Below, one piece after another: positions 10,172 to 44,275 of a stretch of DNA of 57,665 bases. The translations under genes were made by a program, and so were the position numbers. The notes under the pieces are model-generated. The model had not been told where the DNA came from and searched no databases. It worked only from the letters and a program-made list of their open reading frames with translations. Location: positions 1-57,665 of IMG/VR virus record IMGVR_UViG_3300008113_000328. The stretch is one strand, 5' to 3'. Source of the stretch: a virus (lineage: Duplodnaviria > Caudoviricetes). Position 1 is the first letter of the stretch. Every line of letters starts with the position of its first letter.

Positions 10172-11636
10172 TAGTCATTGCTTTTTTAAAGTGTGAAACT
10201 GTATAGTCTTTCTTCTTAGTAACCGCCTTGTATATGTCCTGCTCAATGCCGCCCTTGGTGAACACCCAATACACGTTGTTCGCAGGTCTGTCCTTCGTAG
10301 TCATCCTGTCCTTGCTCTGCCAATAACTTGTTGCACTGAAGTCAATGTTGTAGTACACCAAGAACTCAGCTTGCTTGAGCGAGATACCCTCCCTGCCCGA
10401 GACAATCTGAAGAGCGATGTTCTTATCGGTGTCTTCAAAGACACTCAGTTCAGTTGTCAATGCATCACCGAATACCTGCTTCAATGCGTTGAGTTCTTCC
10501 TTGAACTTGTAGAAGATTCCAATCTTCTTGCCCTTGAATTTCCTCTTAATGAACTCAGCCTTGGTGGTATCTATTACCATCGAGTTGCCGCTTTCAAACT
10601 TGACCGTGCCCGAGTATATCTGATGCAGCTTCATCATCAACTTAACAGGAGTGTCAGCCAATATCACCTCATCTCTTCCCTCAATCACCAACTCTTTCTT
10701 GAGACGATTAGCTAATGAATAAGTTGACTGCCTCATCTCAACCTCAAGTATCTCCTCAGTAGTTGTGGTTACAAACCCTGCCTGAGCCTGAGTGTAGCTA
10801 ATGGTATATGGCTTCATCACCTCAAGTATATCCTCGCTACCCTTAGAGTAATCCTTAATGACCAATCCGTTGATTCTTTTCTCTCGAACCTTAACGTACT
10901 TGTCACAGAACCTGTAGAAGTTTTGGAACTCAGCGAATGGATTACCCGGTATGCCGTACACCTGATGGTACATCTGAGAATACGACTCAGGCGTTGGTGT
11001 CCCCGACAGAAGGATGACCATTGGCTTGTGCTTTCTGATTAGGTCTTTTACCATTAGCGCACGCTGACTTGGCTTAGGGAATGCGCCTATGCTATGCGCC
11101 TCATCACAGATAATCAAGTCCCATTTAATGCTTGAGTCAATCGTATGCAGACTCTCGTAGTTGATGATGTGCAAGTTGTAGGTTGGACTCAGCAAGTTAT
11201 AGTCCCGCTCAATAGATTCTATTGCCTTCTTCTTTGTTATGAACAGGACGTTGTTAGCATTCATCTTCTGAGAGATGCCAAGGCTTGTTAGTGTCTTGCC
11301 CGTGCGCACCTCCATCGCAAGATAAAGAAACCTATACTTTGAAAGTATGACAGAACCCTTGAGAATGATTTCTTTTTGATAATCCCTTAGCATTAACTTA
11401 CTCTCCCTTTCTACATCCTGCTCGTGCAGTTTCTTATAGTACTCACAACTGCGAAGTATTCGGTCGATAGTTTCCCTGTCTGTCTTGTGCTTGGGAACCT
11501 CAACTATTTTTACCTGCTTGCCCCTTCCTTCTTTTACCTGCTTGGTTGCTAACACTACTTGTTTCATAAGTTCGCACTCTTTCCACATATACAGGTTGCT
11601 TGTACCTGATACTCGTTCAATGATATCCTCTTTCAT
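10164..11636 (-). CDS. SF2 (SNF2-like) DEAH helicase
   Basis: LRDYQ Q-motif, MEVRTGKT, ICDEAH, LSGTP, GREGISL, QSKDR. The core starts at ATG 11393, after an ~80-aa N-terminal extension. Confidence 0.9.
   Translation of the reverse strand: MKEDIIERVSGTSNLYMWKECELMKQVVLATKQVKEGRGKQVKIVEVPKHKTDRETIDRILRSCEYYKKLHEQDVERESKLMLRDYQKEIILKGSVILSKYRFLYLAMEVRTGKTLTSLGISQKMNANNVLFITKKKAIESIERDYNLLSPTYNLHIINYESLHTIDSSIKWDLIICDEAHSIGAFPKPSQRALMVKDLIRKHKPMVILLSGTPTPESYSQMYHQVYGIPGNPFAEFQNFYRFCDKYVKVREKRINGLVIKDYSKGSEDILEVMKPYTISYTQAQAGFVTTTTEEILEVEMRQSTYSLANRLKKELVIEGRDEVILADTPVKLMMKLHQIYSGTVKFESGNSMVIDTTKAEFIKRKFKGKKIGIFYKFKEELNALKQVFGDALTTELSVFEDTDKNIALQIVSGREGISLKQAEFLVYYNIDFSATSYWQSKDRMTTKDRPANNVYWVFTKGGIEQDIYKAVTKKKDYTVSHFKKAMTND
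10429..10444. repeat. 16-bp near-palindrome inside the helicase CDS
   Basis: Exact GTGTCTTCAAAGACAC on + (antisense to the helicase mRNA). Confidence 0.85.
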
Positions 11637-11968
11637 TTAATTAATCTTTTATTGCATTTAGCACATTTCATTTTCTTAGTATACTCTGCTATCTCAGGAC
11701 ACTCGCAATCGCAAGACTCAATCTTAGATGTGCCATCCTCATTAAAGTTCTTGGACATATACTCACTGATTGCAAGGCAGTGCTCATACATCTCCTGCTG
11801 TTGGAAGTAGTACATTATAAAGTTGAGTGCCTCAATACTTATCTCCTCATCAGGGATATGAGAAAAAAGCGGTACGCCCGAATCCATTATCTCGTCAATG
11901 GTAAACGCTTCGGTGATTACATTGTATGAGTTAAGCATAGCAATGTGTATCTTCTGTTGCTCCGTCAT
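11633..11968 (-). CDS. Hypothetical protein with C-terminal Cys cluster
   Basis: ATG at 11968 overlaps the primase TAA (TAATG coupling); CDCEC..CAKC. Confidence 0.6.
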   Translation of the reverse strand: MTEQQKIHIAMLNSYNVITEAFTIDEIMDSGVPLFSHIPDEEISIEALNFIMYYFQQQEMYEHCLAISEYMSKNFNEDGTSKIESCDCECPEIAEYTKKMKCAKCNKRLIK

Positions 11969-14391
11969 TAGTCTATGTTTGTTTGGTTTTGAAATTCTGA
12001 ATCCTGTTTTTTCTTGATGATAATCCAACGCCCTGATTGGTCGCGTCCTTCCTCAGGCATTGTACCCTCCTTGAACATAGCGTAAGATACTAACCACTTA
12101 TAGAACCTTGTTCTGCTGATGGTCATCTTAGACTTAGGCCCGTAGTCAGGATACTCCTCAATGAAGTTATAGTACAGGTCGTTCTTGTATAGACGGATGC
12201 CTGAGTCAAGTACAACATTGCGCTCTTGATTATCGACAAGACCACACCATTCGATAAACTCGTGGCAAGTCTCTGCTGATAGCTGACGAACCTTGAGGTT
12301 AACGAACTTGGACTTGACCAATCCCGTGCGGAGGTATGACTTGAGACATCCAATCATATAGTTGTCGAAGTCGCACCAATCGTCATCATTCCAATCACCG
12401 AACATCAACTTTCCAAACTCATCTAGCGGAGTGAAGTCTTTCCTGTAGTACTGATGTAGTTCAAGTTCCCACTTGCGTCTAGCGAATGAGTTACCTGCAC
12501 CCTTAATTGCATAGTTGGTAGTGATGGCAATCTTCGGTGACTTGCTAAATGGAATCTTGATTGCATCCTTGTTCTTCTTCTCGAGTGTCAACCCCTCAGT
12601 TACCACAGAGAACAGACGCTCGAAGTCGAAGTGTTTCTTCACGTCATCAAAGCAGAGTATCTGCGTGTCGGCAGACACAAGTTGGTACGCGAATGAACGC
12701 TCAAAGGTGAACGACTTACCATCAATCACCACAAGTTTCTTCAGGTTGCTCAGCGCGTTCATCAGAAGTCCCTTGCCTGTACCACCCTCAGGGTTGTCGC
12801 TAATCACCTCATCGTTTAAGATGATGGCAGGGCAGAACGATAGGTTCTTATACCCGTGCATCAGGAATCCGATGGTGCTCTCCATAGACCTGACCCTGCT
12901 CTCGTCACCGCCATTGATGTTGACAACGAGCTGCTTGAAGTCGCACCTGCCCGTCACCTCACAGATGCTGAAGACCCTATCTATCACGTGGTCTTTCCAC
13001 ACGTAACCGCCAAGGTCGAGGTAGTCGATTGGTGTTACCTCGTCCTTTGTAATCTTCACCGCGCAGTTCTTGTAGTATAGGTACGAGCAGTCTTTGTTGT
13101 CGGCAATGAAGTAGATGTCTATGGTAGACAGCATTGACAAGAACTCTTCCTTGAAGAACCTCGTGTTGTCTGCAAAGTAGTTGTATACGGATATGTCATC
13201 CAACTCAAGCAGGTGCGCAAGCACGAAGTCCTTTATCTCTTTCTCTGATGTGTGGTCGATGAGGTTGTTGGTTACCTTAACGAACACGTAGTTCTTACCA
13301 CCCTCGGGGCAGTACTTGTAGAACCCATTGTCTTCCAAGAACTGCTTGAACAGGATGTGGATTATCTTGATGACTCCCTTATCGTTCTTAGTCCAAAAGG
13401 TTTGCTTGGCGTTCTCTTCCTCGACCTTGTTCAGGACTGATTCAATTACCTCACTATCCAAGTTAGAGTCTTGCAGTTGGTAGCGTATCTCTTTTTTTGA
13501 TACGCCCCTCCGCAACTTAGCTTTGATTTGATTGACCCTCTCCTCGTCCTCGTAGTACTTAGTTCCGAAGTTTGCCGTGTGCTTGTACGCTGAGTCAATT
13601 GTTGTTGCAATCTCACGTGTGGTGAAGTCTTCGGTAGCGTATTGGTTGAGCACGTATGATGCAAGACCCTTGTTGATTCCAAAGTCATTGAACGCCATCG
13701 CAAGTACGTATGCGTTCTGATTCCTCTGCCCCTCATACATCGGGTATTTCTTTGTCCACCACTTTACGAGGATATCCACAATCTTATTCTCGTCAGTGAT
13801 TGGGATAGTCGGTTGGTCTTTGACCTTACTCACCTCATTGTACTCAGCCTCCTCAATCGTGTCCCATATGGACGAGTTCTCGTTGACGTGGATGAGTGGG
13901 TCGTATGACTCGTAACATACACGGCTCAGGTTCTTGCTCGTCTTGTCGAAGTACGGAGAGTTGAAGTGTTTCTCAAGTGAGTTGAAATAGTTGGTGTGGT
14001 TCTCGGGGTCAGCAGGTATCTTGACGAGAGCCTTGAGACCATTGCCTGATGGTGAGATGAATACGCTGAACACGTACTTGCTCTTGCTCAGGTTCTCCTT
14101 GTCCTGTAGTAGTTCCTTCTGCTTGGTGTACCCATCGAAGTCCAAACAGATTAGACCTGAGTGCTCGATGATTGCGCTGTCTGAACGCTTGTTGAACTTA
14201 CCACTGAAGCAGATGGCAGGCAGTTGCTTCTTCATCTCGTTGCGCTCGGGCTTCCGCTTCTCTGCGCGGATGCGCTTGACCAAGTCTTTGCTTGCCCCGT
14301 CCTTGATGCGCTCAAGTATCTTGTGTACCTCTCTGAAGAAAGGTGTGTCCGTGTCACGGATGTTCTGAAAGATGGTTATCGTGCCGTTCAT
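11968..14391 (-). CDS. Primase-helicase (VirE-N/BT4734-like N-terminus, PriCT-like region, SF3/D5-like P-loop ATPase)
   Basis: KKQLPAICFSG, HSGLICLDFD, FISPSGNGLK, GQRNQNAY, GGTGKGLL, LCFDDV, ITTNY. Confidence 0.85.
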   Translation of the reverse strand: MNGTITIFQNIRDTDTPFFREVHKILERIKDGASKDLVKRIRAEKRKPERNEMKKQLPAICFSGKFNKRSDSAIIEHSGLICLDFDGYTKQKELLQDKENLSKSKYVFSVFISPSGNGLKALVKIPADPENHTNYFNSLEKHFNSPYFDKTSKNLSRVCYESYDPLIHVNENSSIWDTIEEAEYNEVSKVKDQPTIPITDENKIVDILVKWWTKKYPMYEGQRNQNAYVLAMAFNDFGINKGLASYVLNQYATEDFTTREIATTIDSAYKHTANFGTKYYEDEERVNQIKAKLRRGVSKKEIRYQLQDSNLDSEVIESVLNKVEEENAKQTFWTKNDKGVIKIIHILFKQFLEDNGFYKYCPEGGKNYVFVKVTNNLIDHTSEKEIKDFVLAHLLELDDISVYNYFADNTRFFKEEFLSMLSTIDIYFIADNKDCSYLYYKNCAVKITKDEVTPIDYLDLGGYVWKDHVIDRVFSICEVTGRCDFKQLVVNINGGDESRVRSMESTIGFLMHGYKNLSFCPAIILNDEVISDNPEGGTGKGLLMNALSNLKKLVVIDGKSFTFERSFAYQLVSADTQILCFDDVKKHFDFERLFSVVTEGLTLEKKNKDAIKIPFSKSPKIAITTNYAIKGAGNSFARRKWELELHQYYRKDFTPLDEFGKLMFGDWNDDDWCDFDNYMIGCLKSYLRTGLVKSKFVNLKVRQLSAETCHEFIEWCGLVDNQERNVVLDSGIRLYKNDLYYNFIEEYPDYGPKSKMTISRTRFYKWLVSYAMFKEGTMPEEGRDQSGRWIIIKKKQDSEFQNQTNID

Positions 14392-14552
14392 ATGTCGATT
14401 TTATGATAGATTTTTTTTAGCTAAGTGACTGACCCATAGTATCTATGTCTTTTATGTCAATTTTTTAATTAAAATAATAATAATAAAAAAAAGAGAGAGA
14501 AGAGAAGTATATATAGAGAGATAGGGGTCTTTGTCTTGGCATCTTTGACATT
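14391..14552. other. AT-rich region with TATGTC repeats; candidate replication origin A
   Basis: Repeated TATGTC(G/A/T), an AAT tract, a purine tract, TATATAGAG and an inverted TTGACAT; directly upstream of the primase-helicase gene. Confidence 0.4.
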
Positions 14553-14562
14553 GGTTAGAGCC

Positions 14563-14587
14563 AAAAAAAGGGGGATGTTCTCCCCCT
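14563..14587 (-). terminator. Intrinsic terminator after the SSB-like gene
   Basis: Minus strand AGGGGGA-GAACA-TCCCCCT followed by a U-run. Confidence 0.75.
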
Positions 14588-14607
14588 ATTTTGGGTTAAC
14601 TCATTGA

Positions 14608-14916
14608 TTAGAAAGGTAGTTCCTCTTCCTCCTCGCTTGTCTGCTTGGGCTTAGGACTTGCTTTCGCTGTGGGTTTTTCCGACACCTTTGGTTCAGCCTT
14701 GGCTGCGCTCTTAGGTTCGTAGGTGTCCAACTCAAGGTAGTAGTTACCACTACGCGCTTGTTTGACATTGAGGTTTGTCCATCCTCCCTTCTCGTGTTTC
14801 TTGAGAAAGGCGATAGCCTCATCCACTTTCATTGATAGTCTACCGACAACGAAGTCGGGTGCATTCTCGCTACGCTTGAACGAGAATCCGTCTGCAAAGA
14901 TTTTCTCTTCTGCCAT
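14608..14916 (-). CDS. Putative single-stranded DNA-binding protein
   Basis: Small beta-rich core, low-complexity linker and acidic tail EEEEELPF like the SSB C-terminal DDDIPF; lies next to the exonuclease and Sak genes. Confidence 0.6.
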   Translation of the reverse strand: MAEEKIFADGFSFKRSENAPDFVVGRLSMKVDEAIAFLKKHEKGGWTNLNVKQARSGNYYLELDTYEPKSAAKAEPKVSEKPTAKASPKPKQTSEEEEELPF

Positions 14917-14934
14917 TTGAATTGATTTTTGTTT

Positions 14935-14988
14935 GCCCCAATCTGTTTGTTAACTGAGCAATGAATCCTTGGGGCTGAACTCATTACT
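14935..14988 (-). promoter_or_regulatory. H-type RNA pseudoknot in the 5' leader of the SSB-like gene
   Basis: S1 AGUAAUGAGUUC/GGAUUCAUUGCU (12 bp incl. G-U), L1 a single A, S2 GCCCCAA/UUGGGGC (7 bp), L3 15 nt; ends 18 nt before the ATG. Confidence 0.65.
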
Positions 14989-14994
14989 TAGTGG

Positions 14995-15010
14995 GTGTCT
15001 TTAAAGACAC
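14995..15010. repeat. Perfect-palindrome variant GTGTCTTTAAAGACAC at the 3' end of the tRNA-like element
   Basis: Lies 3 nt past the discriminator base. Confidence 0.85.
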
Positions 15011-15013
15011 TTG

Positions 15014-15106
15014 TAGTCAGGACAGGACTCGAACCTGTAAAAAGGTAGGCTATGTACACTTGCCGTTTGAAGAACACTTGCAATTACCCATTTCTGCCAC
15101 CTGACT
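15014..15106 (-). tRNA. tRNA-like element / pseudo-tRNA with unassignable anticodon
   Basis: Acceptor AGTCAGG/CCTGACT+A, D-like arm TGGCAGAAATGGGTAATTGC and a perfect T arm ACAGG-TTCGAGT-CCTGT. The central region does not form a canonical anticodon arm. Confidence 0.6.
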
Positions 15107-15108
15107 AT

Positions 15109-15210
15109 TTAGAAGAGGGAGGGGTAGCTATCCCCTCCGATTGAATTACTGACCACACTCAGAAGTTACTCGAGTCGTTCTGAGCGCAGAGGTTCTGTTC
15201 ACTCTTCCAA
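15109..15210 (-). ncRNA. Structured RNA (three-way junction) immediately 5' of the tRNA-like element
   Basis: Closing stem UUGGAAGAG/CUCUUCUAA, arm CUGCGCUCAGAA/UUCUGAGUGUGG and hairpin GGAGGGG/CCCCUCC; the G-U pairs favour the minus strand. Confidence 0.45.
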
Positions 15211-15215
15211 ATTTA

Positions 15216-15956
15216 TTAATCTAATGTCTCGTCAATGTAGTAGTTGATGATGTCATCCGTTGGGTTCTCACCGAAGTACTTGTTGTACACCTCGATGGCA
15301 CGGGCAACTTTCATCTCACCACCCTTGATAAAGTTCTCAGTTGGTCTGAACACACCAAGCTGTCCTGTCTCCTTGTCTACCACGTAGAACACGAGCGGCT
15401 TGCCAAACAACTGCTGATAGATGTAGCACTGAGAGTCGTAGTTGTACGCCTTAGCTGACCACTTGAACTTGTTGATGTCTGAGGTGGTCTTCAGGTCAAT
15501 GATGCAGTCAGCTGTTACGATGTCGGCCTTACCCTTCCACATCATCCCCTGTATCTCACCTACCGATGGCAACTCATACTGATTGCCTTCCTGATATATC
15601 TCATCATAGAACGTGATGTTCCCCTTCATCAAGGACACAAGATGCTCCACCTCCTCGACCTCCTTCTTCAGCATACAGAACGGCAGGTTGTGGGTCTCGC
15701 AGTAGTTTTTGTACTCCTTGGTGTTACGTGTGGTCACGTCCACGAACTTGACATCCTTCGCCTTCTCAGGTTCAATCATTAGCTGATGGAAGTACCTGCC
15801 CTCCATAAATGATTTGTTATCCTCACGTGGCTTGCCAAAGTTCTTAGGGTTGGTCAGCAGTGTGCCGATGTCTGAGTTGGATAAGTACTCCTTGCCAACT
15901 CCGTTGTAGTATTCGTAGTCATCCTTCAATGACTCAATGATTGATGTGTTACTCAT
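15216..15956 (-). CDS. RecE/ExoVIII-like PD-(D/E)XK exonuclease
   Basis: YLSNSDI, GRYFHQLMIEP, WKGKADIV..IIDLKTT, YNYDSQCYIY. Confidence 0.85.
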   Translation of the reverse strand: MSNTSIIESLKDDYEYYNGVGKEYLSNSDIGTLLTNPKNFGKPREDNKSFMEGRYFHQLMIEPEKAKDVKFVDVTTRNTKEYKNYCETHNLPFCMLKKEVEEVEHLVSLMKGNITFYDEIYQEGNQYELPSVGEIQGMMWKGKADIVTADCIIDLKTTSDINKFKWSAKAYNYDSQCYIYQQLFGKPLVFYVVDKETGQLGVFRPTENFIKGGEMKVARAIEVYNKYFGENPTDDIINYYIDETLD

Positions 15957-15960
15957 ATGA

Positions 15961-16563
15961 TTAAGCGTTGATTAAGTTAGTGATTTCCTTCTTTACTGCG
16001 GCTGATAGCTTATACTTTCTACCAAGCTGTTGGGTAATCTTATTAACACCCAATTGTTTATTGGCAGCAACGTACTGCACCACCTTGTTCCACGTTGGTG
16101 ACTGAGTGTCAACAGCCAAGTCAGCTAACGCAGGGGCAGGTGCTGCCTCCTGTGTGGTTGTCATCTCGGGCATATCCTCCCCTGTCCACAGGCTGAGTCC
16201 GAGTCCGTGCATTGCGATAGCCTTAGCTGTTGAACGCTGAATAGTTTTGTTCACGTCCATCGCGCTAATCTTCTCAAGCGGAATCGCATTGTTGCGGTAG
16301 TCCATCACGGGCAGGTAGTCGATGTGCTCAAGTCCGTTAACGATGATGCCCACCTTCACGTATGCTGTCTTGCCATCGGTGAAGTAGTTGAACCCTGTGT
16401 GGTCGTGCTCATAGACCTTGCGCTGTGCATCAGGGTAGATATGTTTGAGCATAGCCCAAGCATTCGCCCACGATAGGTAGTCAAGATTACCCTTGCGCTC
16501 TATCTTTTCCTTGACATTGATTGATGATAGTGTGCTGAACACTGATTGATTTGATTGTGACAT
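15961..16563 (-). CDS. sak: Sak/Rad52-like single-strand annealing protein
   Basis: LSSINVKEKIERKGNLDYLSWANAW..LPVMDYRNNAI..DVNKTIQRSTAKAIAMHGLGL. Confidence 0.85.
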   Translation of the reverse strand: MSQSNQSVFSTLSSINVKEKIERKGNLDYLSWANAWAMLKHIYPDAQRKVYEHDHTGFNYFTDGKTAYVKVGIIVNGLEHIDYLPVMDYRNNAIPLEKISAMDVNKTIQRSTAKAIAMHGLGLSLWTGEDMPEMTTTQEAAPAPALADLAVDTQSPTWNKVVQYVAANKQLGVNKITQQLGRKYKLSAAVKKEITNLINA

Positions 16564-16577
16564 ATGATGATTAAGTT

Positions 16578-16880
16578 TTAGATTGATACTGATTTACTGA
16601 TTTCTTTTACGAGGTGGCGGTAGTCTATGTCTCGCTCGACCTTCTTCTCTACAGAGTTAATCCCGTGTATGATTGAGGAGTGCTGAATGTCGTAGCCATT
16701 CTCCTTCAAATACTTTTGGATATAGGTTATCTGTATGTGGCGAATTGAACATAGGAAGTACAACAGGTGTCTTGCATCAGCTAGGTCTCTGCGTTTGTTC
16801 TTAGAGAACAACTCTTCCCTGCTTATCCGTGCCTGTTCAACAACCTTCTCAACGTACTGATTAAAAACATCTTGCTTCAT
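16578..16880 (-). CDS. Second DnaA domain IV-like HTH protein
   Basis: FSKNKRRDLADARHLLYFLC...HSSIIHGINSVE. Confidence 0.65.
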   Translation of the reverse strand: MKQDVFNQYVEKVVEQARISREELFSKNKRRDLADARHLLYFLCSIRHIQITYIQKYLKENGYDIQHSSIIHGINSVEKKVERDIDYRHLVKEISKSVSI

Positions 16881-16900
16881 TTCGATTGGATTTTATGGTA

Positions 16901-16908
16901 CAAAGATA
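16901..16908 (-). promoter_or_regulatory. Bacteroidota -7 promoter element (TATCTTTG)
   Basis: TAnnTTTG about 20 nt upstream of the ATG at 16880. Confidence 0.6.
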
Positions 16909-16944
16909 GTCAATATGTGTATCATTTGTACATTTATTTAATAA

Positions 16945-17202
16945 TTATTTTAACTTGTTTATAACTTTCTCAGCGTACAGATACCACAGCGCAGACTCAA
17001 CCGCGTCAAGTACTTTGTGTTGTATCTCACGCTTGCCCTTCTTGATATAGAAGTCGTTTGATTTAAGCACCTGTATGATGAAGTCGTGTGTGTACATCAC
17101 AACCTCCGCGCAGTTTGGGTTCAGCTTTACATTGGGGTTCTCCTTCAGATATACCGCAATCGGGGTGACCCTTCCCGTCTTTACAAAGTCTTCAAATTTC
17201 AT
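16945..17202 (-). CDS. Hypothetical protein
   Basis: 85-aa ATG ORF coupled to the upstream gene. Confidence 0.6.
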   Translation of the reverse strand: MKFEDFVKTGRVTPIAVYLKENPNVKLNPNCAEVVMYTHDFIIQVLKSNDFYIKKGKREIQHKVLDAVESALWYLYAEKVINKLK

Positions 17203-17420
17203 CTTCTTGTTTTGTGTTTAAATGATAGTGATACAATCAAAGCACCCAAGACTACAATTATCATTAGCCAAAAGGTGTCGAGTAGAATTGCCTTGAGTAG
17301 GGACGATGGGCTTTCAGCCTCATCAATCAGGTTAAGCATAGCCCTCACTGAATAACCTGCAATAATGATGTAGATTAATCCGAGGAACAGAGCCTCGTAA
17401 ACTTTTAGAATCTTATTCAT
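17199..17420 (-). CDS. Small two-TM membrane protein
   Basis: Two hydrophobic stretches and a basic C-terminus. Confidence 0.6.
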   Translation of the reverse strand: MNKILKVYEALFLGLIYIIIAGYSVRAMLNLIDEAESPSSLLKAILLDTFWLMIIVVLGALIVSLSFKHKTRR

Positions 17421-17431
17421 TGTATATTGGT

Positions 17432-17836
17432 TTAGATGATTGACCTTCTTTCCACCTTGTATATCTCATATCCACCTGCCCTTCGCAAGCACTCGATGGC
17501 TTCCTCCTCAGTTATCACGGGCAATGTTTTGAACACAACCTTGTTAGTACTGAGCACAGCCTCGCCATTCTTTTTGTCGTTGTACAGGCTCATCGTTTTG
17601 CGATGCTCTTTAAAAAACACAGACAGCTGTTTAGTTGACAAGGGTTCAGGGGCAATCCAATTGTAGTGTCCCTTTGAAGAGGACACAATCCAATTGAGTT
17701 TGCGAAGTGTGACAAAGACCTTGGCATCAACCCTTGCTTTCTTGCGAATCTCATCGAGGTTGAATGTCTTTAAGCGTGAGCATTCTTTTAATAGGAGAGT
17801 CCATCTCTCCTCGGCTTGTTTACTTACTTGTCTCAT
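17432..17836 (-). CDS. Hypothetical protein (start revised to ATG 17836)
   Basis: A-rich leader AAATTAAATCTAATCAAATG; the longer ORF call would run through the ribozyme. Confidence 0.6.
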   Translation of the reverse strand: MRQVSKQAEERWTLLLKECSRLKTFNLDEIRKKARVDAKVFVTLRKLNWIVSSSKGHYNWIAPEPLSTKQLSVFFKEHRKTMSLYNDKKNGEAVLSTNKVVFKTLPVITEEEAIECLRRAGGYEIYKVERRSII

Positions 17837-17859
17837 TTGATTAGATTTAATTTGAGTTA

Positions 17860-17910
17860 CCCGTTTCATCCTTTCGGAATCATCAGCTGAGGCACACACC
17901 TCAGTACGGG
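17860..17910 (-). ncRNA. Type III hammerhead ribozyme HHR-1
   Basis: CCCG-UA^CUGAGG-UGUGUG-CCUCAG-CUGAUGA-UUCC-GAAA-GGAU-GAAA-CGGG; predicted cut 17905/17904. Confidence 0.92.
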
Positions 17911-17913
17911 GGA

Positions 17914-17929
17914 GTGTCTTTGAAGACAC
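17914..17929. repeat. 16-bp near-palindrome GTGTCTTCAAAGACAC (sense on -)
   Basis: Exact copy, immediately 5' of HHR-1. Confidence 0.9.
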
Positions 17930-17938
17930 CCCCTGTGA

Positions 17939-19000: not shown

Positions 19001-19059
19001 AGTGATTAGATTTATGGGCATCGTACTAAACGAAGAACCCTGATTGAACTGATTTTGCA

Positions 19060-19091
19060 CAAAGGTACGACAATCTTTAGACAATGTCAAG
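19060..19091 (-). promoter_or_regulatory. Repeated early promoter (-33 CTTG, 20-nt spacer, TACCTTTG)
   Basis: Homologous to the promoters at 21270 and 22809. Confidence 0.7.
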
Positions 19092-19099
19092 TAAAATCT

Positions 19100-20621: not shown

Positions 20622-20640
20622 AAAATTGATTGTGTTAGTT

Positions 20641-20691
20641 TCCGTTTCATCCTTTTGGAATCATCAGTCGGGACACTCATCCCGATACGGA
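20641..20691 (-). ncRNA. Type III hammerhead ribozyme HHR-2
   Basis: UCCG-UA^UCGGGA-UGAGUG-UCCCGA-CUGAUGA-UUCC-AAAA-GGAU-GAAA-CGGA; cut 20686/20685. Confidence 0.92.
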
Positions 20692-20694
20692 GCA

Positions 20695-20710
20695 GTGTCT
20701 TTGAAGACAC
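20695..20710. repeat. 16-bp near-palindrome
   Basis: Exact copy 5' of HHR-2, extended by GCG/UGC pairing on the minus strand. Confidence 0.9.
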
Positions 20711-22421: not shown

Positions 22422-22437
22422 GTGTCTTTGAAGACAC
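22422..22437. repeat. 16-bp near-palindrome
   Basis: Exact copy 5' of HHR-3. Confidence 0.9.
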
Positions 22438-23239: not shown

Positions 23240-23255
23240 GTGTCTTTGAAGACAC
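23240..23255. repeat. 16-bp near-palindrome
   Basis: Exact copy 5' of HHR-4. Confidence 0.9.
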
Positions 23256-23493: not shown

Positions 23494-23516
23494 AACGTGT
23501 GTGTTTTTAAGGTTTG

Positions 23517-23565
23517 CCGTTTCGTCCTTTTGGACTCATCAGACAGGGCACTCACCCTGTTACGG
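23517..23565 (-). ncRNA. Type III hammerhead ribozyme HHR-5
   Basis: CCG-UA^ACAGGG-UGAGUG-CCCUGU-CUGAUGA-GUCC-AAAA-GGAC-GAAA-CGG; cut 23561/23560. Confidence 0.95.
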
Positions 23566-23573
23566 GAGGGGCA

Positions 23574-23589
23574 GTGTCCTTGAAGACAC
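23574..23589. repeat. 16-bp near-palindrome, one-base variant
   Basis: GTGTCCTTGAAGACAC (A-U changed to G-U on the minus strand), 5' of HHR-5. Confidence 0.85.
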
Positions 23590-24518: not shown

Positions 24519-24534
24519 GTGTCTTTGAAGACAC
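24519..24534. repeat. 16-bp near-palindrome in an extended hairpin, no ribozyme
   Basis: GGGCGGTGTCTTCAAAGACACTGCCC on the minus strand, intergenic. Confidence 0.9.
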
Positions 24535-24552: not shown

Positions 24553-25206
24553 TTATTGGTTAACTGCGTATTTCACTTTGGTGGTGAACAGGCGAATAGC
24601 CTCTAACACTGCGTCCTTGTCAGCAGTGGTGTGAATAGCCCCGTCTGTATCGATTCGCACAGCTATGTTAGCCCCTTCGGGGTTCTTGAAAGTGAATGAA
24701 AATACCACCTGTGGACGCACCTCAATTGCAGGCTCTTCGCCTTCGCCTTCGCCCTCTTCACCGCCTTCGCCTGTTCCACTGCTCTCTTGTCCCTGTTCCA
24801 AAGCCTTAGCGAACTTATTGAGAGCCTCAATACTGCGAACAGGCTTCTCGCCTGTGCTCTCAGCCTCATCGCACTTTGCGTTGAACGTCTCAATCACCTC
24901 AGCAGGTAGTTCACCTGCCTTGACTAGCTTGCAGAAAAACGACTTCTTGTATCCAAACACCTTTTCGCCAAGGGCTTCCTTAGTGAACGTCACGCCCTCC
25001 TCTTCGCACAGGGCTTTACCCTCTGCGCTGTTCACCCAAGCCCAAGCCTGTGCCGACAGCTTTGCCATACTCAGAGTGTTCTCAAACGTCTTCTTCTCAG
25101 CCTTAGCCATAGTGCGCTGTAAGGCTGTCACCTGTTGCAGGTTCATACCTGCCTTAACCTGTGGATTGCTGAGGAACGATGCCTCAATTGATAGTAAATT
25201 GCTCAT
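24553..25206 (-). CDS. Hypothetical protein, first gene of the early operon
   Basis: 217-aa ATG ORF with a Gly/Glu linker. Confidence 0.7.
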   Translation of the reverse strand: MSNLLSIEASFLSNPQVKAGMNLQQVTALQRTMAKAEKKTFENTLSMAKLSAQAWAWVNSAEGKALCEEEGVTFTKEALGEKVFGYKKSFFCKLVKAGELPAEVIETFNAKCDEAESTGEKPVRSIEALNKFAKALEQGQESSGTGEGGEEGEGEGEEPAIEVRPQVVFSFTFKNPEGANIAVRIDTDGAIHTTADKDAVLEAIRLFTTKVKYAVNQ

Positions 25207-25335: not shown

Positions 25336-25660
25336 GGCTGATTTGTTTGCGCCTGTAAAGGGTTGCAGGGGCGTAGCCCTCTGTCATCGGGCGTGCTCAG
25401 TGTCTTTGAGGACACTTCTACAGGGGCGGAGGAGGAGCGGAGGGCAGGTGACAGGGGCGAACAGCTGTGCGGGACAGGTGCACCGCCCTGCGCTATGCAG
25501 GGCAGTGCTACGGGGCTACAGGCGGCTACAGGATGACAGGGCGAAAAGCCAAAAACCTCACAGGGGCGCACCGAAATCTGACCCCCACCCCTTTGCCAGA
25601 GAGCCGTTTCCGCGCGGGGGGTGGCGCGCGTGCCGTGGGGGGTTACCCCAACACTACTAC
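25336..25660. other. GC-rich non-coding divergence region with ACAGG(G) repeats and a palindrome variant at 25400-25415
   Basis: No credible ORF; high G+C relative to its flanks; lies between the leftward and rightward transcription units. Confidence 0.5.
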
Positions 25661-30782: not shown

Positions 30783-31120
30783 TGAAAGACGCTTGCTACA
30801 AAAAGGTAAAAGCACAGTACGATGTTTTTCCATCGGCAAGAGCTTCCCAAGCTATTGCAAAATGTAGGAAGGCTTCAGGCAATGTAAGAAAAACGGAAGA
30901 GGGTACATCTCTCAAGCGTTGGGAGAAAGAGAAGTGGGTTGATACTCGCACGGGTAAAGCCTGTGGTGCAGGTGGCAAGAACGAGTATTGCAGACCTACA
31001 ACAAGAGTGTCTTCAAAGACACCGAAAACAAAGTCAGAGATTTCACCATCTCAGTTAGCTTCCAAGAAAGCGGAGAAGTCTCGTGTTGGAATGGGTAGAA
31101 AAGTTTCCAAAATAAATTAG
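30782..31120 (+). CDS. Basic phage protein (DUF5872-like); contains a palindrome copy at 31007-31022
   Basis: KDACYKKVKA..FPSARAS..LKRWEKEKWVD..YCRP. Confidence 0.65.
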   Translation: MKDACYKKVKAQYDVFPSARASQAIAKCRKASGNVRKTEEGTSLKRWEKEKWVDTRTGKACGAGGKNEYCRPTTRVSSKTPKTKSEISPSQLASKKAEKSRVGMGRKVSKIN

Positions 31121-36675: not shown

Positions 36676-36676
36676 T

Positions 36677-36958: not shown

Positions 36959-39185
36959 CTCATTGTATTTTACGGTCCGTGACCTAATACCCAACCCTGT
37001 TCTTTTAAAAAAGAATAAGGCAAAGACTTGGGCATATGGTTATGACGAGAAGTATGACGTTGTAGTAATCTCCAAGACGGGAGAGATAGGTCAGATAATA
37101 AATGTATCGGGCCTTAATATCGCTTTGCCTGCCCAACCTAAGGAGTGTCTTCAAAGACACTCAAAACCATCTGAGCAGTATTGGGAGAGGCAAGAGTTGC
37201 CAAAAGAACTTGCGAAGATTCAGTCTATCTTTCATTGGAATGAGAAACCTAAAGAGTTTAAGGATAGATGGGTTGACTACATCGAGAAAGAGTTTGACTA
37301 TAGAGAGGAAGGATTTTGGTTTATGAACAACGGGAAGCCCTGTTATATTACAGGTGCTCACTATATGTACCTTCAGTGGTCAAGCATTGACGTTGGATAT
37401 CCTGACTTTAGAGAGGCCAATCGAATCTTCTTTTTGTTTTGGGAGGCGTGCAAAGCTGACCCAAGAGCATTTGGAATGATATATCTCAAGATTAGACGTT
37501 CAGGATTTTCCTTTATGGCTTCGTCTGAATGTGTAAACATTGGTACGCTCGCTCGTGATGCACGTGTAGGAATATTATCTAAGACGGGTGCGGATGCAAA
37601 GAAGATGTTTACAGATAAGGTTGTACCCATCAATAGTAGACTTCCATTCTTTTTCAGACCTATTATGGATGGTATGGATAAGCCAAAGACCGAGTTGGCG
37701 TTCCGCGTGCCTGCCTCCAAGATTACAAAAAAGAATATGTATGAGTCTTCTGATGATGAGATAGAGGGATTAGATACCACTATAGATTGGAAGAACACAG
37801 AAGAGAACTCTTATGACGGAGAGAAGTTAGCTTTCTTGGCTCACGATGAGTCGGGCAAGTGGGTCAAGCCAAATAACATCCTAAACAATTGGCGCGTAAC
37901 TAAGACCTGTTTGCGTTTGGGTAGTAAGATAATCGGAAAGTGTATGATGGGTTCTACCTCTAATGCTTTGAGCAAGGGGGGTGATAACTTTAAAAAACTG
38001 TATGAGGATTCCCACATAGGGATACGTAACGCCAATGGTCAGACCAAAAGTGGAATGTACTCGTTGTTTATTCCAATGGAGTGGAATATGGAAGGCTTCA
38101 TTGATATACACGGGATGCCTGTATTTAGAAAGCCTGAAGAAAGGGTAAGAGGAGTAGATGGCAATTGGATTAGTAATGGTGCTATAGATTATTGGGAGGC
38201 TGAGGTTGATTCGCTCAAGCACGACTCAGATGCACTCAATGAATTTTATCGTCAGTTCCCAAGAACAGAATCCCACGCATTTCGTGATGAGAGCAAGCAA
38301 GCCCTGTTTAACCTAACTAAAATATATCAGCAGATTGACTACAACGATTCTTTGATAATAGACCAACACGTAACTCGTGGCAGCTTTATGTGGAAGGACG
38401 GAATCAAGGATACGCAGGTTATATTTATGCCTGATAAGCGTGGGCGTTTTGCAATTACGTGGGTTCCTCCAAAGCAGATGCAAAACAATGTGCACCTGCG
38501 CAATGGTATTAAGTATCCCGGCAATGAGCACTTAGGCTCGTTTGGGTGTGACTCATATGATATCTCTGCTGTTGTGGATGGAAGGGGGTCGAATGGTTCT
38601 CTTCACGGAATGACTAAGTTCCATATGGATGAGGCTCCTATAAACGAGTTCTTTTTGGAATACATTGCTCGACCACAAACGGCTGAGATATTTTTTGAAG
38701 AGGTTCTTATGGCTTGTGTATTTTATGGTATGCCTATCTTGGCGGAGAATAACAAGCCTCGTTTACTATACCACTTTAAGAATAGAGGATATCGTGGGTT
38801 CTGTATGAATAGGCCCGATAAACAATATGCTAAACTATCTAAGACTGAGCGTGAACTTGGAGGCATACCTAACTCATCTGAGGATGTAAAGCAGGCTCAC
38901 GCTGCTGCGATAGAGTCGTATATTGAGAAGTTTATTGGTATGGATTTATCAGGTGCTTATAGAGATTCCGATGAGATGGGGTCTATGTTATTTACAAGAA
39001 CACTTGAGGATTGGGCTAAGTTTGATATTAACGATAGAACTAAGTTCGATGCATCTATCAGTTCGGGACTAGCTATTATGGCTAACCAAAAACATCTTTA
39101 TATGCCTGAGAAAAAAGAATCCAAAATAAGTATTAACTTCGCAAGGTACAAGAATGACGGAAACACAAGTCAATTGATTCGATGA
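36936..39185 (+). CDS. terL: Terminase large subunit (contains a palindrome copy at 37145-37160)
   Basis: KIRRSGFS Walker-A-like motif, LAHDESGK Walker B, MGST, FGCDSYD nuclease, AENN; start codon uncertain. Confidence 0.85.
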   Translation: MQSEGLNNSLYFTVRDLIPNPVLLKKNKAKTWAYGYDEKYDVVVISKTGEIGQIINVSGLNIALPAQPKECLQRHSKPSEQYWERQELPKELAKIQSIFHWNEKPKEFKDRWVDYIEKEFDYREEGFWFMNNGKPCYITGAHYMYLQWSSIDVGYPDFREANRIFFLFWEACKADPRAFGMIYLKIRRSGFSFMASSECVNIGTLARDARVGILSKTGADAKKMFTDKVVPINSRLPFFFRPIMDGMDKPKTELAFRVPASKITKKNMYESSDDEIEGLDTTIDWKNTEENSYDGEKLAFLAHDESGKWVKPNNILNNWRVTKTCLRLGSKIIGKCMMGSTSNALSKGGDNFKKLYEDSHIGIRNANGQTKSGMYSLFIPMEWNMEGFIDIHGMPVFRKPEERVRGVDGNWISNGAIDYWEAEVDSLKHDSDALNEFYRQFPRTESHAFRDESKQALFNLTKIYQQIDYNDSLIIDQHVTRGSFMWKDGIKDTQVIFMPDKRGRFAITWVPPKQMQNNVHLRNGIKYPGNEHLGSFGCDSYDISAVVDGRGSNGSLHGMTKFHMDEAPINEFFLEYIARPQTAEIFFEEVLMACVFYGMPILAENNKPRLLYHFKNRGYRGFCMNRPDKQYAKLSKTERELGGIPNSSEDVKQAHAAAIESYIEKFIGMDLSGAYRDSDEMGSMLFTRTLEDWAKFDINDRTKFDASISSGLAIMANQKHLYMPEKKESKISINFARYKNDGNTSQLIR

Positions 39186-41665: not shown

Positions 41666-42763
41666 ATGCAATTTAAAGAAGTAAGGGTAATTGACACAGG
41701 AGACACCAAGGGTGTAGCAGAGAAAGAAGCTGAATTACTTGCTAAGCACGAAGCTGCGCAAGTAGATGCTGAAGCAAATGCGGTAGTACAAGCAGAAGAG
41801 CCGCCTGCAAATGCGGACTCTCAGTTGCCCGAGCTAAAAGAAGAAGACGTTCTTTCATATATTGGAAAAAGATACAATAAGCAAATCAACTCTTTTGATG
41901 AGTTGATGGCTGAACGTCAGCAGGCAGAACAGATGCCTGAAGACGTAGCCGCTTATATGAAATTTAAGAAGGAGACAGGTCGTGGATTCGATGACTTTAT
42001 CAAACTGAATAAAGATTACGATTCTATGGACGCTGATATCCTTCTAAAAGAATACCTTTCCTCTACACAAGAGGGACTTGATGCCGAAGACATTGAGGCT
42101 TTGATGGATGATTATAGATATGATGAAGACCTTGATGATGAATCGCGAGTTAAAAAGGTAAAGATTGAGAGAAAGAAAACTATTGCTGAGGCAAAGAAAT
42201 TCTTTAACACTCAAAAGGAAAAGTACAAGATACCCCTTGAGTCAAGTGCGGTTGGTGTTCCTGCTGAGGATAAAGAAGAGTATGAAGCGTTCAAGCAGTA
42301 TATAGGCAAGGCGAAGACCATAGAGGAGGAGAACAACCGTAAGCGTCAATGGTTTGACCAAAAAACGGACGAGGTGTTTAGCGGAGAGTTCAAAGGTTTT
42401 GAGTTCAACGTGAATGACCGAAAGTTCAAATTTTCTCCCGGAGACGCTGCTGAGTTGAAGAAAGTCCAATCAACTCCTGCGAACTTTATTAATAAGTTCT
42501 TGGATGAAAATGGATTGATGAAAGACGCAGCAGGCTACCATAGGTCGTTAGCTATTGCTATGCACCCCGACAAGTTCGCCAAGTACTTCTATGAGCAAGG
42601 ATTGGCAGACGCAACTGATGATGTTGCCCGTAAGATTAAGAATGTAAATATGTCTGAACGGAAAGCTCCTGAGGTTACGTCAACTAATAGTGGGTTTCAG
42701 GTGAAAGCGGTCAACCCTGATTCCGGAAGGAAACTAAAAATCCGTAGTGCAAAACGAATTTAA
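41666..42763 (+). CDS. Capsid scaffolding protein
   Basis: Acidic, helical, between portal and capsid genes. Confidence 0.65.
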   Translation: MQFKEVRVIDTGDTKGVAEKEAELLAKHEAAQVDAEANAVVQAEEPPANADSQLPELKEEDVLSYIGKRYNKQINSFDELMAERQQAEQMPEDVAAYMKFKKETGRGFDDFIKLNKDYDSMDADILLKEYLSSTQEGLDAEDIEALMDDYRYDEDLDDESRVKKVKIERKKTIAEAKKFFNTQKEKYKIPLESSAVGVPAEDKEEYEAFKQYIGKAKTIEEENNRKRQWFDQKTDEVFSGEFKGFEFNVNDRKFKFSPGDAAELKKVQSTPANFINKFLDENGLMKDAAGYHRSLAIAMHPDKFAKYFYEQGLADATDDVARKIKNVNMSERKAPEVTSTNSGFQVKAVNPDSGRKLKIRSAKRI

Positions 42764-42784: not shown

Positions 42785-44230
42785 ATGGCAGGTTCTATTT
42801 TATCAAACCCTACCTTTTCGCTGCAACCCGCTCCCGAACAGGTGGCTTTACAAACAAATTACATTACTGACTTTGATTTCTTAAATCAGTATCTCCCCGA
42901 TACTTACGAGAAGGAATTTGAGCGTTATGGTAATCGTACAATTGCATCATTCCTCCGTATGGTAGGAGCTGAGATGCCCTCAAACTCTGACCAAATCAAA
43001 TGGGCAGAACAAGGTCGTCTTCACATTAAGTACAGTAACTGTACTACTGCTGCTGCTGCCGGTGCGAGTACAGCTACGTTTCAGGTAAATACTGTAGCGG
43101 GAGCAATTGCAACAGTTGCTATTCGTGTTGGTCAAACTGTAATGATTCAGCAGAACACTACAGGTGTTTTCAACAAAGCTATCGTTACAGCTGTTACTCA
43201 AACAAACACTGCAACAGTAGCAGGTACATTTACTGTAGCTTACTATGAAGCAGGTGGTCAAGCTGCCGCAGGTGCGGGTGCTACGTTTACTGTATTCATT
43301 TATGGTTCTGAGTTCCGTAAAGGAACTAATGGAATGGTTGGTTCTTTGGAAGCTGAAGATGATATCTACAGCAACAGCCCAATCATTATCAAGGACAAGT
43401 ATGCTGTAAACGGTTCCGATATGGCTCAAATCGGTTGGGTTGAGGTAACTACTGAGAATGGTGCTACAGGATATCTTTGGTATCTGAAGAGCGAGCACGA
43501 GACTCGTCTTCGCTTTGAGGACTACCTTGAAACTGCAATGATTGAAGCCGTTCCTGCTGCGTCAGGTTCAGGTGCTGCAACCGCAGGTTTCAAAGGCTCT
43601 GAAGGCATCTTCTATGTAGTTAACAACCGTGGTAACGTATGGGGTGCAGGTACTCCAACTACTCTTGCGGAGTGGGATACCATCGTTCAGCGTTTGGACC
43701 GTCAAGGTGCAATTGAAGAGAACGTAGTATTCGTTAACCGTCAGCTTAGCTTTGACATTGATAATATGTTGGCTACCTTAAACGGTTTCAACGGAGGCTC
43801 TGCCGCAGGTGCTGCATCATTCGGTCTATTCGACAACGACATTAATATGGCGTTGAACCTCGGATTCACAGGATTCCGCAGAGGTTATGACTTCTATAAG
43901 TCAGATTGGAAATACCTTAACGACCCAACAATGCGCGGTGGCTTGAACGCTACTGCTGCAACTGCAACAGGTACTGTAACAGGTCTTCTTGTTCCTGCGG
44001 GTTCTACTTCAGTGTATGACCAAATTATGGGCAAGAACGCTAAGCGTCCATTCCTTCACGTGCGTTACCGCGCATCTGAGGCTGAAGACCGCAGATACAA
44101 GACTTGGATTACAGGTTCTGCGGGAGGTGCTGCTACAAGCGACCTCGATGCAATGGAGGTTAACTTCCTTTCTGAGCGTGCAGTATGTACCTTAGGTGCG
44201 AACAACTTTATCTTGTTCCGCTACGGATAA
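42785..44230 (+). CDS. Major capsid protein
   Basis: 481 aa, high-expression codon bias, follows the scaffold gene and precedes a strong terminator. Confidence 0.8.
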   Translation: MAGSILSNPTFSLQPAPEQVALQTNYITDFDFLNQYLPDTYEKEFERYGNRTIASFLRMVGAEMPSNSDQIKWAEQGRLHIKYSNCTTAAAAGASTATFQVNTVAGAIATVAIRVGQTVMIQQNTTGVFNKAIVTAVTQTNTATVAGTFTVAYYEAGGQAAAGAGATFTVFIYGSEFRKGTNGMVGSLEAEDDIYSNSPIIIKDKYAVNGSDMAQIGWVEVTTENGATGYLWYLKSEHETRLRFEDYLETAMIEAVPAASGSGAATAGFKGSEGIFYVVNNRGNVWGAGTPTTLAEWDTIVQRLDRQGAIEENVVFVNRQLSFDIDNMLATLNGFNGGSAAGAASFGLFDNDINMALNLGFTGFRRGYDFYKSDWKYLNDPTMRGGLNATAATATGTVTGLLVPAGSTSVYDQIMGKNAKRPFLHVRYRASEAEDRRYKTWITGSAGGAATSDLDAMEVNFLSERAVCTLGANNFILFRYG

Positions 44231-44244
44231 TCGTTTTTAAAATG

Positions 44245-44275
44245 GGAGAGTGTCTTCAAAGACACTCTCCTTTTT
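44245..44275 (+). terminator. Intrinsic terminator built on the 16-bp palindrome
   Basis: GGAGAGTGTC-TTCAAA-GACACTCTCC-TTTTT; motif at 44250-44265. Confidence 0.85.

Follow-up and report, generated by a model that had tools for sequence, protein, structure and literature searches.

A dispersed 16-bp palindrome of a phage genome as a candidate parS/operator-like site whose intergenic copies may also serve as RNA hairpins

Introduction

The closest described counterparts of the element treated here, a 16-bp palindrome (GTGTC-TTYRAA-GACAC) with 12 copies in the IMG/VR virus record IMGVR_UViG_3300008113_000328, are the dispersed sites of the DNA-binding proteins KorB and ParB. The window, as the analysed stretch is called in the following, is the whole of this record (57,665 bases; 95% complete according to CheckV). 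The parS site of ParB is 16 bp long, and the IncP plasmid RK2 carries 12 OB sites, the sites of KorB, a figure for which a literature search gave no match. As in these systems, the phage element is a short palindrome scattered over one replicon, with about a dozen copies that partly lie far from promoters or within genes, and it would be read by a dimeric helix-turn-helix protein encoded among the sites, here the candidate P0001. According to its structural model, P0001 also shares the layout of KorB and ParB: a (here putative) DNA-binding domain, a flexible linker and a small C-terminal domain. The general description of ParB/KorB-type sites, a palindrome of 13-16 bp in several dispersed copies that may also lie in genes, applies to the 16-mer. 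In contrast to KorB and ParB, P0001 has neither a ParB/Srx CTPase domain nor detectable sequence similarity to these proteins; unlike in ParB systems, no ParA partner is seen and the replicon is apparently a lytic phage; and, unlike KorB and ParB sites, the 16-mer doubles as an RNA hairpin beside ribozymes.

At the RNA level, several systems invite comparison. Histone mRNAs possess a conserved 16-nt stem-loop, bound by the stem-loop-binding protein (SLBP), a few nucleotides upstream of the endonucleolytic cut that makes the mature 3' end. The phage word, too, is a conserved 16-nt stem-loop just upstream of a cut, an analogy of the works-like kind; in contrast to the histone system, a ribozyme would do the cutting, no RNA-binding counterpart of SLBP was recognised, and copies of the word are present in coding DNA as well as in a spacer that is apparently untranscribed. 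RNase III sites of phage T7 and REP elements are repeated extragenic hairpins that are recognised by shape and define or stabilise the 3' ends of messages. The number of about ten repeated intergenic hairpins per genome is similar here, whereas frozen coding copies and a genome-wide arm switch are features of the 16-mer. The strictly extragenic position and the associated RAYT gene of REP/REPIN elements are not found: coding copies are present, and no transposase was seen among the annotated open reading frames (ORFs) of the window, of which a part was scanned with no search aimed at RAYT.

KorB, its OB sites and long-range silencing are treated in PMC11790492. Clustered hammerhead ribozymes between the genes of phages and prophages are known from Perreault et al. 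2011 (PMC3088659), where several type III hammerheads of a single operon lie between its genes and presumably divide a long transcript into messages of gene length. The phage element is best classed with the dispersed operator/parS-type sites, as a variant that is used a second time in the form of RNA hairpins. With a probability of roughly 50%, it is a parS/operator-like DNA site with a putative reader, the intergenic copies of which have also been recruited as RNA hairpins at cistron ends.

Copies of the palindrome in the window

The word GTGTCTTCAAAGACAC is found at the 12 positions given below. Nine copies are exact, and the others are single-base variants (C8>T at 14995, A11>G at 23574 and T6>C at 25400). 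When up to two mismatches are allowed, 22 strand-matches are counted versus 0.06 expected from 100 dinucleotide shuffles (the top shuffle held 1), and the 16-mer is the commonest repeated 12-mer family of the record. Copies, variants, excess over chance, spacings on the right arm (5.6, 6.1 and 7.1 kb) and surroundings (coding sequences at 10429, 31007 and 37145, the first that of a helicase and the last that of the terminase, and a capsid terminator, with the helicase copy in antisense) had all been given correctly in a preliminary description; it had overlooked five hammerhead cores after the copies at 17914, 20695, 22422, 23240 and 23574 and a tRNA-like gene by that at 14995. Genes of the window are directed rightward from 1 to 8447, leftward from 8448 to 26030 and rightward again from 26448.

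10429..10444, + strand: exact copy inside the SNF2-type helicase ORF 10164-11636 (- strand), antisense to it
14995..15010, strand undefined: copy with a TTTAAA centre, a perfect palindrome, 3 nt past the 3' end of the tRNA-like gene
17914..17929, - strand: exact copy, tip of a 10-bp RNA hairpin, 9 nt past the stop of ORF 17939-19090
20695..20710, - strand: exact copy, tip of a 12-bp RNA hairpin
22422..22437, - strand: exact copy preceding a hammerhead
23240..23255, - strand: exact copy preceding a hammerhead
23574..23589, - strand: A11>G copy, which gives a U-G pair, preceding a hammerhead
24519..24534, - strand: exact copy, tip of an 11-bp hairpin between two early genes, without ribozyme
25400..25415, - strand: T6>C copy in a GC-rich non-coding stretch, 209 nt before the ATG of P0001 and ~140 nt upstream of a -7 box
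31007..31022, + strand: exact copy inside the DUF5872 ORF 30782-31120, encoding V-S-S-K-T
37145..37160, + strand: exact copy inside the large terminase ORF 36936-39185, encoding C-L-Q-R-H
44250..44265, + strand: exact copy 19 nt past the capsid-like ORF 42785-44230, tip of a 12-bp hairpin followed by UUUUU

On the helicase-sense strand, the helicase copy reads GTGTCTTTGAAGACAC and encodes S-V-F-E-D-T. The copy at 24519 lies 18 nt past the stop of P0001, the candidate reader gene, and 24 nt ahead of the next ATG. With its GGGAGA/UCUCC extension and the UUUUU behind it, the copy at 44250 has the build of an intrinsic (Rho-independent) terminator, as it does in many relatives; a U-run follows none of the other 11 window copies.

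Two stretches next to the early genes look like a control or origin region: a GC-rich non-coding one of 300 nt with CCCCTGT-like repeats around the copy at 25400 (25360-25660), and one with an (AT)n run, a hairpin flanked by T-runs on either side and ATCGACAT repeats, which are repeated also in the relatives G007 and G002 (26170-26440). The rightward and leftward gene blocks abut at 8445-8450 with their stop codons, and neither a spacer nor a terminator separates them; thus, each block must be transcribed into the other unless transcription is stopped elsewhere. The helicase copy is the first 16-mer that would be met by rightward read-through past this junction.

Conservation inside coding sequences

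Three window copies, and at least four classes of sites in relatives, lie inside coding sequence. For the terminase, the helicase and the DUF5872 protein, the 80 closest relatives each were taken regardless of the motif, which avoids ascertainment bias. Among the terminase genes, 28 of 80 hold the exact word and 37 of 80 keep GTGTC-N6-GACAC; the Leu codon is CTT in 97% of the 30 Leu-bearing relatives, versus a median of 24% at other Leu columns, and the Arg codon is AGA in 81%, versus a background of 36%. The helicase word is exact in 40 of 80 relatives and nucleotide-exact in 39 of the 55 that have the same six residues, which compares to a median of 1.3% and a maximum of 29% for control six-codon windows. 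For DUF5872, the word is exact in 35 of 80 (35 of the 45 with the same residues), and synonymous codons vary freely in relatives that lack the word. Directly outside the word, third codon positions are unconstrained (28% and 11% conserved). Conservation of synonymous sites at the coding copies was the test on which the preliminary description had staked its proposal, and the outcome favours function. Synonymous sites of phage core genes can hold regulatory words, which calls for caution in annotation.

An ORF of chaperonin size in the relatives G006, G002 and G023 has a palindrome copy of its own.

Distribution among relatives and the arm switch

The exact word is present in at least 120 IMG/VR stretches and recurs in the same contexts in diverged relatives; a text search of the literature found neither strand of it. 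A set of 35 related ~60 kb phage records was hand-picked, some of them for a helicase site without the word, and its members are mutually related: 20 possess 7-13 copies, 12 possess none or one, two incomplete records possess 2-4, and one (G010) has a variant only. Loci with a terminase copy also have the copy at the capsid terminator, and most loci without the one are without the other. Motif-less phages use unrelated hairpins as capsid terminators, and no substitute palindrome was found in their genomes.

The exception, G010, has no standard word and eight copies of GTCTC-N6-GAGAC at the usual places: at the capsid terminator, in the terminase (now S-L-Q-R-D), in the helicase (now S-L-F-E-E-T) and before a hammerhead. 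The arm change thus costs amino-acid changes in terminase and helicase. This variant occurs in 105 IMG/VR stretches. Among the 35 records, the variant-arm search covered those other than G015, G019, G026-G028, G032 and G033.

On a terminase tree (FastTree, motif columns removed), the motif state changes at least 14 times, at least seven of the changes being forced by well-supported branches, and decayed remnants of the word adjoin intact motif-bearing sisters. Core genes are equally similar with or without the motif (terminase identity 79-82% in both groups). Since the dispersed sites appear, decay and change together, a trans-acting, sequence-specific reader is implied.

No informative close isolated phage was found. 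The best match is the uncultured record MW202828 (terminase 81.6%), and phages of Flavobacterium, Cellulophaga and Tenacibaculum reach only 46% in the closest-isolate comparison. Two further observations concern relatives: L026 (IMGVR_UViG_3300044723_002720) has 15 GTGTC-N6-GACAC sites in 14.9 kb, much denser than in the window, together with a divergent P0001 homolog, and at 58.4-60.4 kb of G004 (L213/L214) a second repeat of ~22 nt containing TTGTTGTGCCATAGTTTATTTG occurs in five copies within 2 kb.

A candidate reader and its early cassette

The best candidate for a phage-encoded reader is P0001, the first gene after a promoter of Bacteroidota type:

24553..25206, - strand: P0001, candidate reader, 217 aa
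25267..25274, - strand: -7 box TATATTTG of the TAnnTTTG type, 68 nt before the P0001 ATG

A box of the TAnnTTTG type, which we take to be the Bacteroidota -7 promoter consensus, precedes the P0001 ATG also in six further genomes (G001, G003, G004, G007, G008 and G014). Copies of the 16-mer bracket the gene; the upstream one is at -209 to -273 from the ATG in seven genomes, including the window, and at -54 in G023. A P0001 homolog is present in 20 of 21 motif-rich records, one of which holds the motif as the variant, and a strong homolog in none of 12 motif-poor ones. When genes were tracked between 10 motif-bearing and five motif-less whole genomes, only four genes of the window followed the motif, all of them early: 24553-25206 (P0001), 23604-24494, 20214-20621 and 17939-19090. 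The binders proposed in the preliminary description, a winged helix-turn-helix protein (28535-28978) and DnaA-IV-like proteins, proved to be core genes that motif-less relatives possess too.

P0001 has more than 1,182 unnamed homologs. Its models (pLDDT 80; 91 for the N-domain alone) consist of nine helices, an acidic Gly/Glu linker and a small C-terminal domain. In a structure comparison by VIA-align, the matches include KorB 1r71 (Z 5.4-5.6; rmsd, the root-mean-square deviation, 3.0-3.3 over 86-96 residues), Spo0J 1vz0 (Z 4.9-5.3), KorB 8qa8 (Z 4.7), SopB (Z 4.1-4.2) and ParB 6s6h (Z 4.2); KorB-operator, Spo0J, KorB, SopB-DNA (twice) and ParB-parS make up six of the 36 top rows among 48,161 chains. 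Each of these scores is weak, yet the recurrence of one small family among comparisons of a predicted model is notable. The homodimer prediction scores 0.48 versus 0.00 for the best control, a score that is reached by 20 of 30 solved homodimers and one of 23 single chains; its runs share at least 91% of contacts, at a pLDDT of at least 74. No ParB/Srx CTPase domain was found in P0001, the N-terminus of which is helical and part of the predicted dimer interface. Helix 88-98, the putative recognition helix, lies outside this interface. Its conserved K-S is preceded by Q (13), K (2) or D (1) in 16 proteins of GTGTC-type phages and by N, S, S, G or Q in five of GTCTC-type phages; at the sequence level, a change of the helix that tracks the arm type is suggestive, although confounded by relatedness. 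The ESM Atlas gives DUF3102 as a lead for P0001 (0.91, only 136 shared features); judged by titles, no paper among the literature matches is devoted to this family.

Alternatively, the reader could be a protein of a particular group of host Flavobacteriia, in which case the word would be kept or lost with the host and the early cassette would track host range. The all-or-none pattern and the repeated loss would also follow from host switches, and a cassette rather than one gene co-occurs with the motif. A host reader is nevertheless improbable, as the beginning of the putative recognition helix of P0001 changes along with the arms and copies bracket the P0001 gene.

The early genes that track the motif (17939-19090 and 23604-24494, both - strand) include a fusion of a glutamine-amidotransferase-like and a gamma-glutamyl-cyclotransferase part and a protein with amidoligases as the nearest Atlas clusters (0.95-0.96). 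Fusion and amidoligase-like protein look like a set for the modification of small molecules or peptides.

Hammerhead ribozymes and RNA hairpins beside the word

Five of the minus-strand copies are followed by type III hammerhead ribozymes, whose cleavage sites lie 7-13 nt further on. In the sense of transcription, the order of the module is 16-mer, GUA or GUC triplet, hairpin, CUGAUGA, hairpin and GAAAC:

17858..17912, - strand: type III hammerhead, RF00008 29.5 bits, E 0.03; GUA triplet 9 nt after the 16-mer
20639..20693, - strand: type III hammerhead, RF00008 35.4 bits
22368..22422, - strand: type III hammerhead, RF00008 37.2 bits
23181..23233, - strand: type III hammerhead with a GUC triplet, without Rfam match, recognised by core and stems, coordinates read by hand
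23514..23568, - strand: type III hammerhead, RF00008 38.8 bits, E 7e-5

The four matches to Rfam RF00008 (29.5-38.8 bits, E 7e-5 to 0.03) are all under the gathering score of 48.5; the elements of the hammerhead core (CUGAUGA ... GAAA and an NUH triplet) are present in all five minus-strand cores. A topology of type II, in which the 16-mer itself is stem III of the ribozyme, was rejected: a stem III strand of its own comes after GAAA, and Rfam aligns the ribozymes as type III.

For comparative analysis, 33 distinct modules of 16-mer and hammerhead were collected from the window and related phages, the choice requiring the motif upstream. In their alignment, 96.7% of the cells are paired, versus 79% in shuffled alignments and 37-46% with the partners slid. 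Pairs that have changed on both sides number 6 of 6 in stem I, 3 of 4 in stem II and 3 of 5 in stem III, and 14 in total when the extension of the hairpin is included. The two pairs that flank the 16-mer covary too, the first being G-U in 13 of the 33 modules; the helix therefore runs on into the flanks in the transcribed sense. G-U pairs in the extensions had been pointed out before; over all 254 contexts, G-U exceeds A-C modestly (79 versus 53). Energy folding gives a 10-13 bp hairpin that abuts stem III, with hairpin z-scores of -3.7 to -6.7. Within the 16-mer, by contrast, the five outer pairs are invariant in the 33 modules except for one flip of G-C to C-G, while the neighbouring helices covary, so a sequence-specific reader is implied here as well.

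A search for hammerheads that was blind to the motif found 26 in 16 whole genomes, 21 of which have the motif 6-24 nt before the cut, whereas in five the slot is taken by an unrelated GC-rich hairpin. Beside the short stem III (4-5 pairs), a hairpin is thus a regular part of the module, for which the word itself is not required. In G002, Rfam gave no hammerhead at E up to 1, and a pattern search gave two candidates, neither of them preceded by the motif; Rfam gave none in G005. The hairpin presumably stacks on stem III and later caps the 3' end of the released upstream message.

These five hairpins bear on an explanation that does without any specific reader: the copies could be ordinary structural hairpins, i.e. 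terminators or 3' stabilisers, that are alike by descent, module duplication or gene conversion. That any hairpin can serve before a hammerhead, and that motif-less relatives have other capsid terminators, would fit. This explanation is already largely refuted and its chance very remote, because it fails on the frozen synonymous sites in at least three unrelated genes, on the invariance of the stem beside covarying helices, on the all-or-none pattern with decay and on the coordinated change in G010, which includes coding copies; furthermore, a word of 16 nt is presumably too short for gene conversion between coding genes.

The ribozymes of the window are new members of a hammerhead kind that is already known, and self-cleavage is predicted for them. 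A hammerhead of a phage of PaP3 type was tested in PMC3088659, and the group of this phage shares 47 nt with 20643-20689 of the window. In contrast to the hammerheads described there, one invariant hairpin word precedes nearly every ribozyme here and also occurs without ribozymes and in coding genes; the accessible part of PMC3088659 describes no partner hairpin word for hammerheads. The literature searched links no hammerheads to phages of Flavobacterium or Cellulophaga.

The stretch 20643-20689 (- strand) is 95.7% identical over 47 nt to intergenic DNA in 66 records of Pseudomonas phages (PaP4, Clew-1, DL54 and others). In these, the stretch with the hammerhead core lies directly upstream of an early gene, and the 3' strand of the ribozyme runs into the start codon; the identity across unrelated hosts is striking.

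DNA or RNA as the level of reading

The combination of symmetry, frozen coding sites, all-or-none pattern and switch of both arms implies a sequence-specific and probably dimeric reader. Less clear is whether it reads DNA or RNA: the arms are self-complementary, and the arm switch and the antisense helicase copy therefore fit both. The preliminary description had suggested an RNA hairpin, a dimeric DNA site or both. Its RNA half is backed by the intergenic copies, which are tips of longer covarying RNA hairpins, and its DNA half by full dyad symmetry, frozen synonymous sites, all-or-none distribution and the switch of both arms.

An RNA reader would be an RNA-binding protein of phage or host that binds the stem-loop and marks or protects message ends or controls cutting, termination or translation, with the DNA palindrome as the mere footprint of the RNA stem. 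Intergenic copies indeed lie 9-19 nt past stop codons at many successive junctions of one operon, and their extensions covary, G-U pairs included. The word forms the capsid terminator in many relatives and precedes 21 of the 26 hammerheads. As the stem is identical from either strand, both the antisense helicase copy and the switch from G3-C14 to C3-G14 are accommodated, and T6 and A11 are jointly replaced by C and G in 3 of 207 sites (positions 6/11 are C/G in 6 of 440).

The loop is harder to reconcile with such a reader. Over 440 distinct sites, the consensus is GTSTC-TTYRAA-GASAC, with the arm centres 11 bp apart; in 432 of them, a pyrimidine-purine step occupies the middle of the word. 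Positions 7 and 10 are T and A in 412 of 440, and this symmetry is kept although the two cannot pair around a two-base loop. The loop varies inside single genomes (G007 and G023), and orientation flips at equivalent intergenic sites in G010 and G023. One conserved copy is situated ~140 nt ahead of the early -7 box, in a place that is predicted to be untranscribed, and the coding copies, which have no extension, fold weakly (-7 to -11.5 kcal/mol). P0001, in turn, is nearer to DNA-binding than to RNA-binding domains, rows with the Roquin ROQ domain in Foldseek being at noise level. On balance, reading at the RNA level alone seems rather unlikely, and DNA is the level that we infer.

Alignment of TTCAAA with local transcription, which the preliminary description had reported for most copies, holds for most copies of the window, but the rule is not strict in relatives. 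Strict orientation as a proof of RNA reading is weakened by the flips in G010 and G023 and by the near-symmetric centre in G006.

Orientation also bears on the proposal that the word is a signal of DNA structure or strand, i.e. a hairpin or cruciform for replication priming, recombination, nicking or packaging, with a primase-helicase or the resolvase-like endonuclease (9524-9787) as possible readers. The strand of TTCAAA switches between 10.4 and 15.0 kb and between 25.4 and 31.0 kb, as would be expected under a lagging-strand-template rule if an origin lay near 26.2 kb, and the phage encodes the resolvase-like endonuclease, a Sak annealing protein and a PD-(D/E)XK nuclease. These three are, however, core genes that are equally present in motif-less relatives; the orientation rule breaks in relatives, and the replication arms that it implies are very unequal. 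Arms of 5-7 bp, moreover, extrude poorly as cruciforms. A structural signal is therefore decidedly improbable.

A model for the palindrome and its weight

The parS/operator-like reading could operate in the following manner: The palindrome GTGTC-TTYRAA-GACAC would be the recognition site of a phage-encoded, dimeric and sequence-specific reader in the style of parS and KorB operators, with sites fixed at about a dozen places of the double-stranded DNA genome, essential genes included. The most likely reader, as we infer, is P0001, a predicted homodimer with a ParB/KorB-like helix-turn-helix and no CTPase domain. Binding would most plausibly result in shut-off or global control of the early operon. 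Intergenic copies would in addition be transcribed, and the flanking pairs may extend the word into a stable hairpin that ends the cistron. Behind the capsid gene, hairpin and U-run would act as an intrinsic terminator. In the early operon, the hairpin would stack on the short stem III of the hammerhead; the cut, 7-13 nt downstream, would then leave the upstream message with a hairpin-capped 3' end.

Several observations weigh against this model. (i) Three other early genes track the motif almost as well as P0001 does, so the association points to a cassette and not to one gene. (ii) G006 has nine copies and no P0001, the gene of which presumably falls at a contig break: its ORF of chaperonin size starts at base 626, and P0001 would lie beyond the contig end. 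(iii) The complete, motif-less G022 has a distant P0001-like ORF (41906-42169, L394; E 5e-5, 25% identity), which may read another word, or none. (iv) P0001 has no match in Pfam (E up to 10), PHROGs, a PDB profile search or Foldseek, and its likeness to ParB and KorB is weak, with Z scores of 4.2-5.6 in a range that the tool calls common for helical proteins. (v) Intergenic copies 9-19 nt past stop codons are what one expects of an RNA element, whereas an operator need not lie there. (vi) Because the arms are palindromic, a reader of the RNA stem explains the arm switch and the antisense helicase copy equally well. (vii) The 35 records are hand-picked and interrelated, so that counts from them are not independent.

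A more far-reaching and unlikely proposal is that of a double reading: in double-stranded DNA, the word would be recognised by a ParB-like early protein that sets expression or organisation genome-wide, and in RNA it would be the obligatory hairpin partner of the ribozymes. Possibly, the same protein would also bind the stem-loop in RNA and in this way gate cutting and the fate of messages, and word and reader would have co-evolved across hundreds of phages, including a full switch of specificity. Such a double reading would be the phage counterpart of the histone stem-loop and SLBP, built on a ribozyme.

If the parS/operator-like reading holds, hundreds of uncultured phage genomes constitute a very large natural data set of a regulator and its dispersed sites, which spans repeated loss, decay after loss and one clean switch of specificity; this switch would have altered a dozen sites, for which essential proteins had to accept amino-acid changes. 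How a protein and its nucleic-acid word co-evolve would become directly testable with a few oligonucleotides and one protein of 217 residues. A DNA operator would, moreover, be recruitable as an RNA part, be it the tip of a terminator or the cap before a hammerhead, and phage hammerheads, the biological role of which remains open according to PMC3088659, would gain a defined partner element.

The tRNA-like gene and the chaperonins

Next to the copy at 14995, the window has a tRNA-like gene:

15013..15106, - strand: tRNA-like gene of 93-94 nt, Rfam tRNA 37.3 bits (gathering score 29), reported as tRNA-??? by ARAGORN

Its acceptor stem and T arm are good, its variable region is long, and its anticodon loop, CUUCAAAC, has 8 nt, with UCA or the four-base UCAA as anticodon. 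No tRNA was found in the relatives G001-G005. Recoding of stop codons by this UCA tRNA-like gene was considered and rejected: TGA ends 17 of 73 crude ORFs, and with TGA read through, five additional frames of 315-389 codons open up, but no standard ORF is lengthened in frame by any of them. The stretch GUGU(U)CUUCAAAC of the tRNA-like gene resembles the 16-mer itself.

The window also encodes a GroEL-type chaperonin and two GroES-like proteins, at 26448-28064, 28312-28569 and 35642-36208, all on the + strand.

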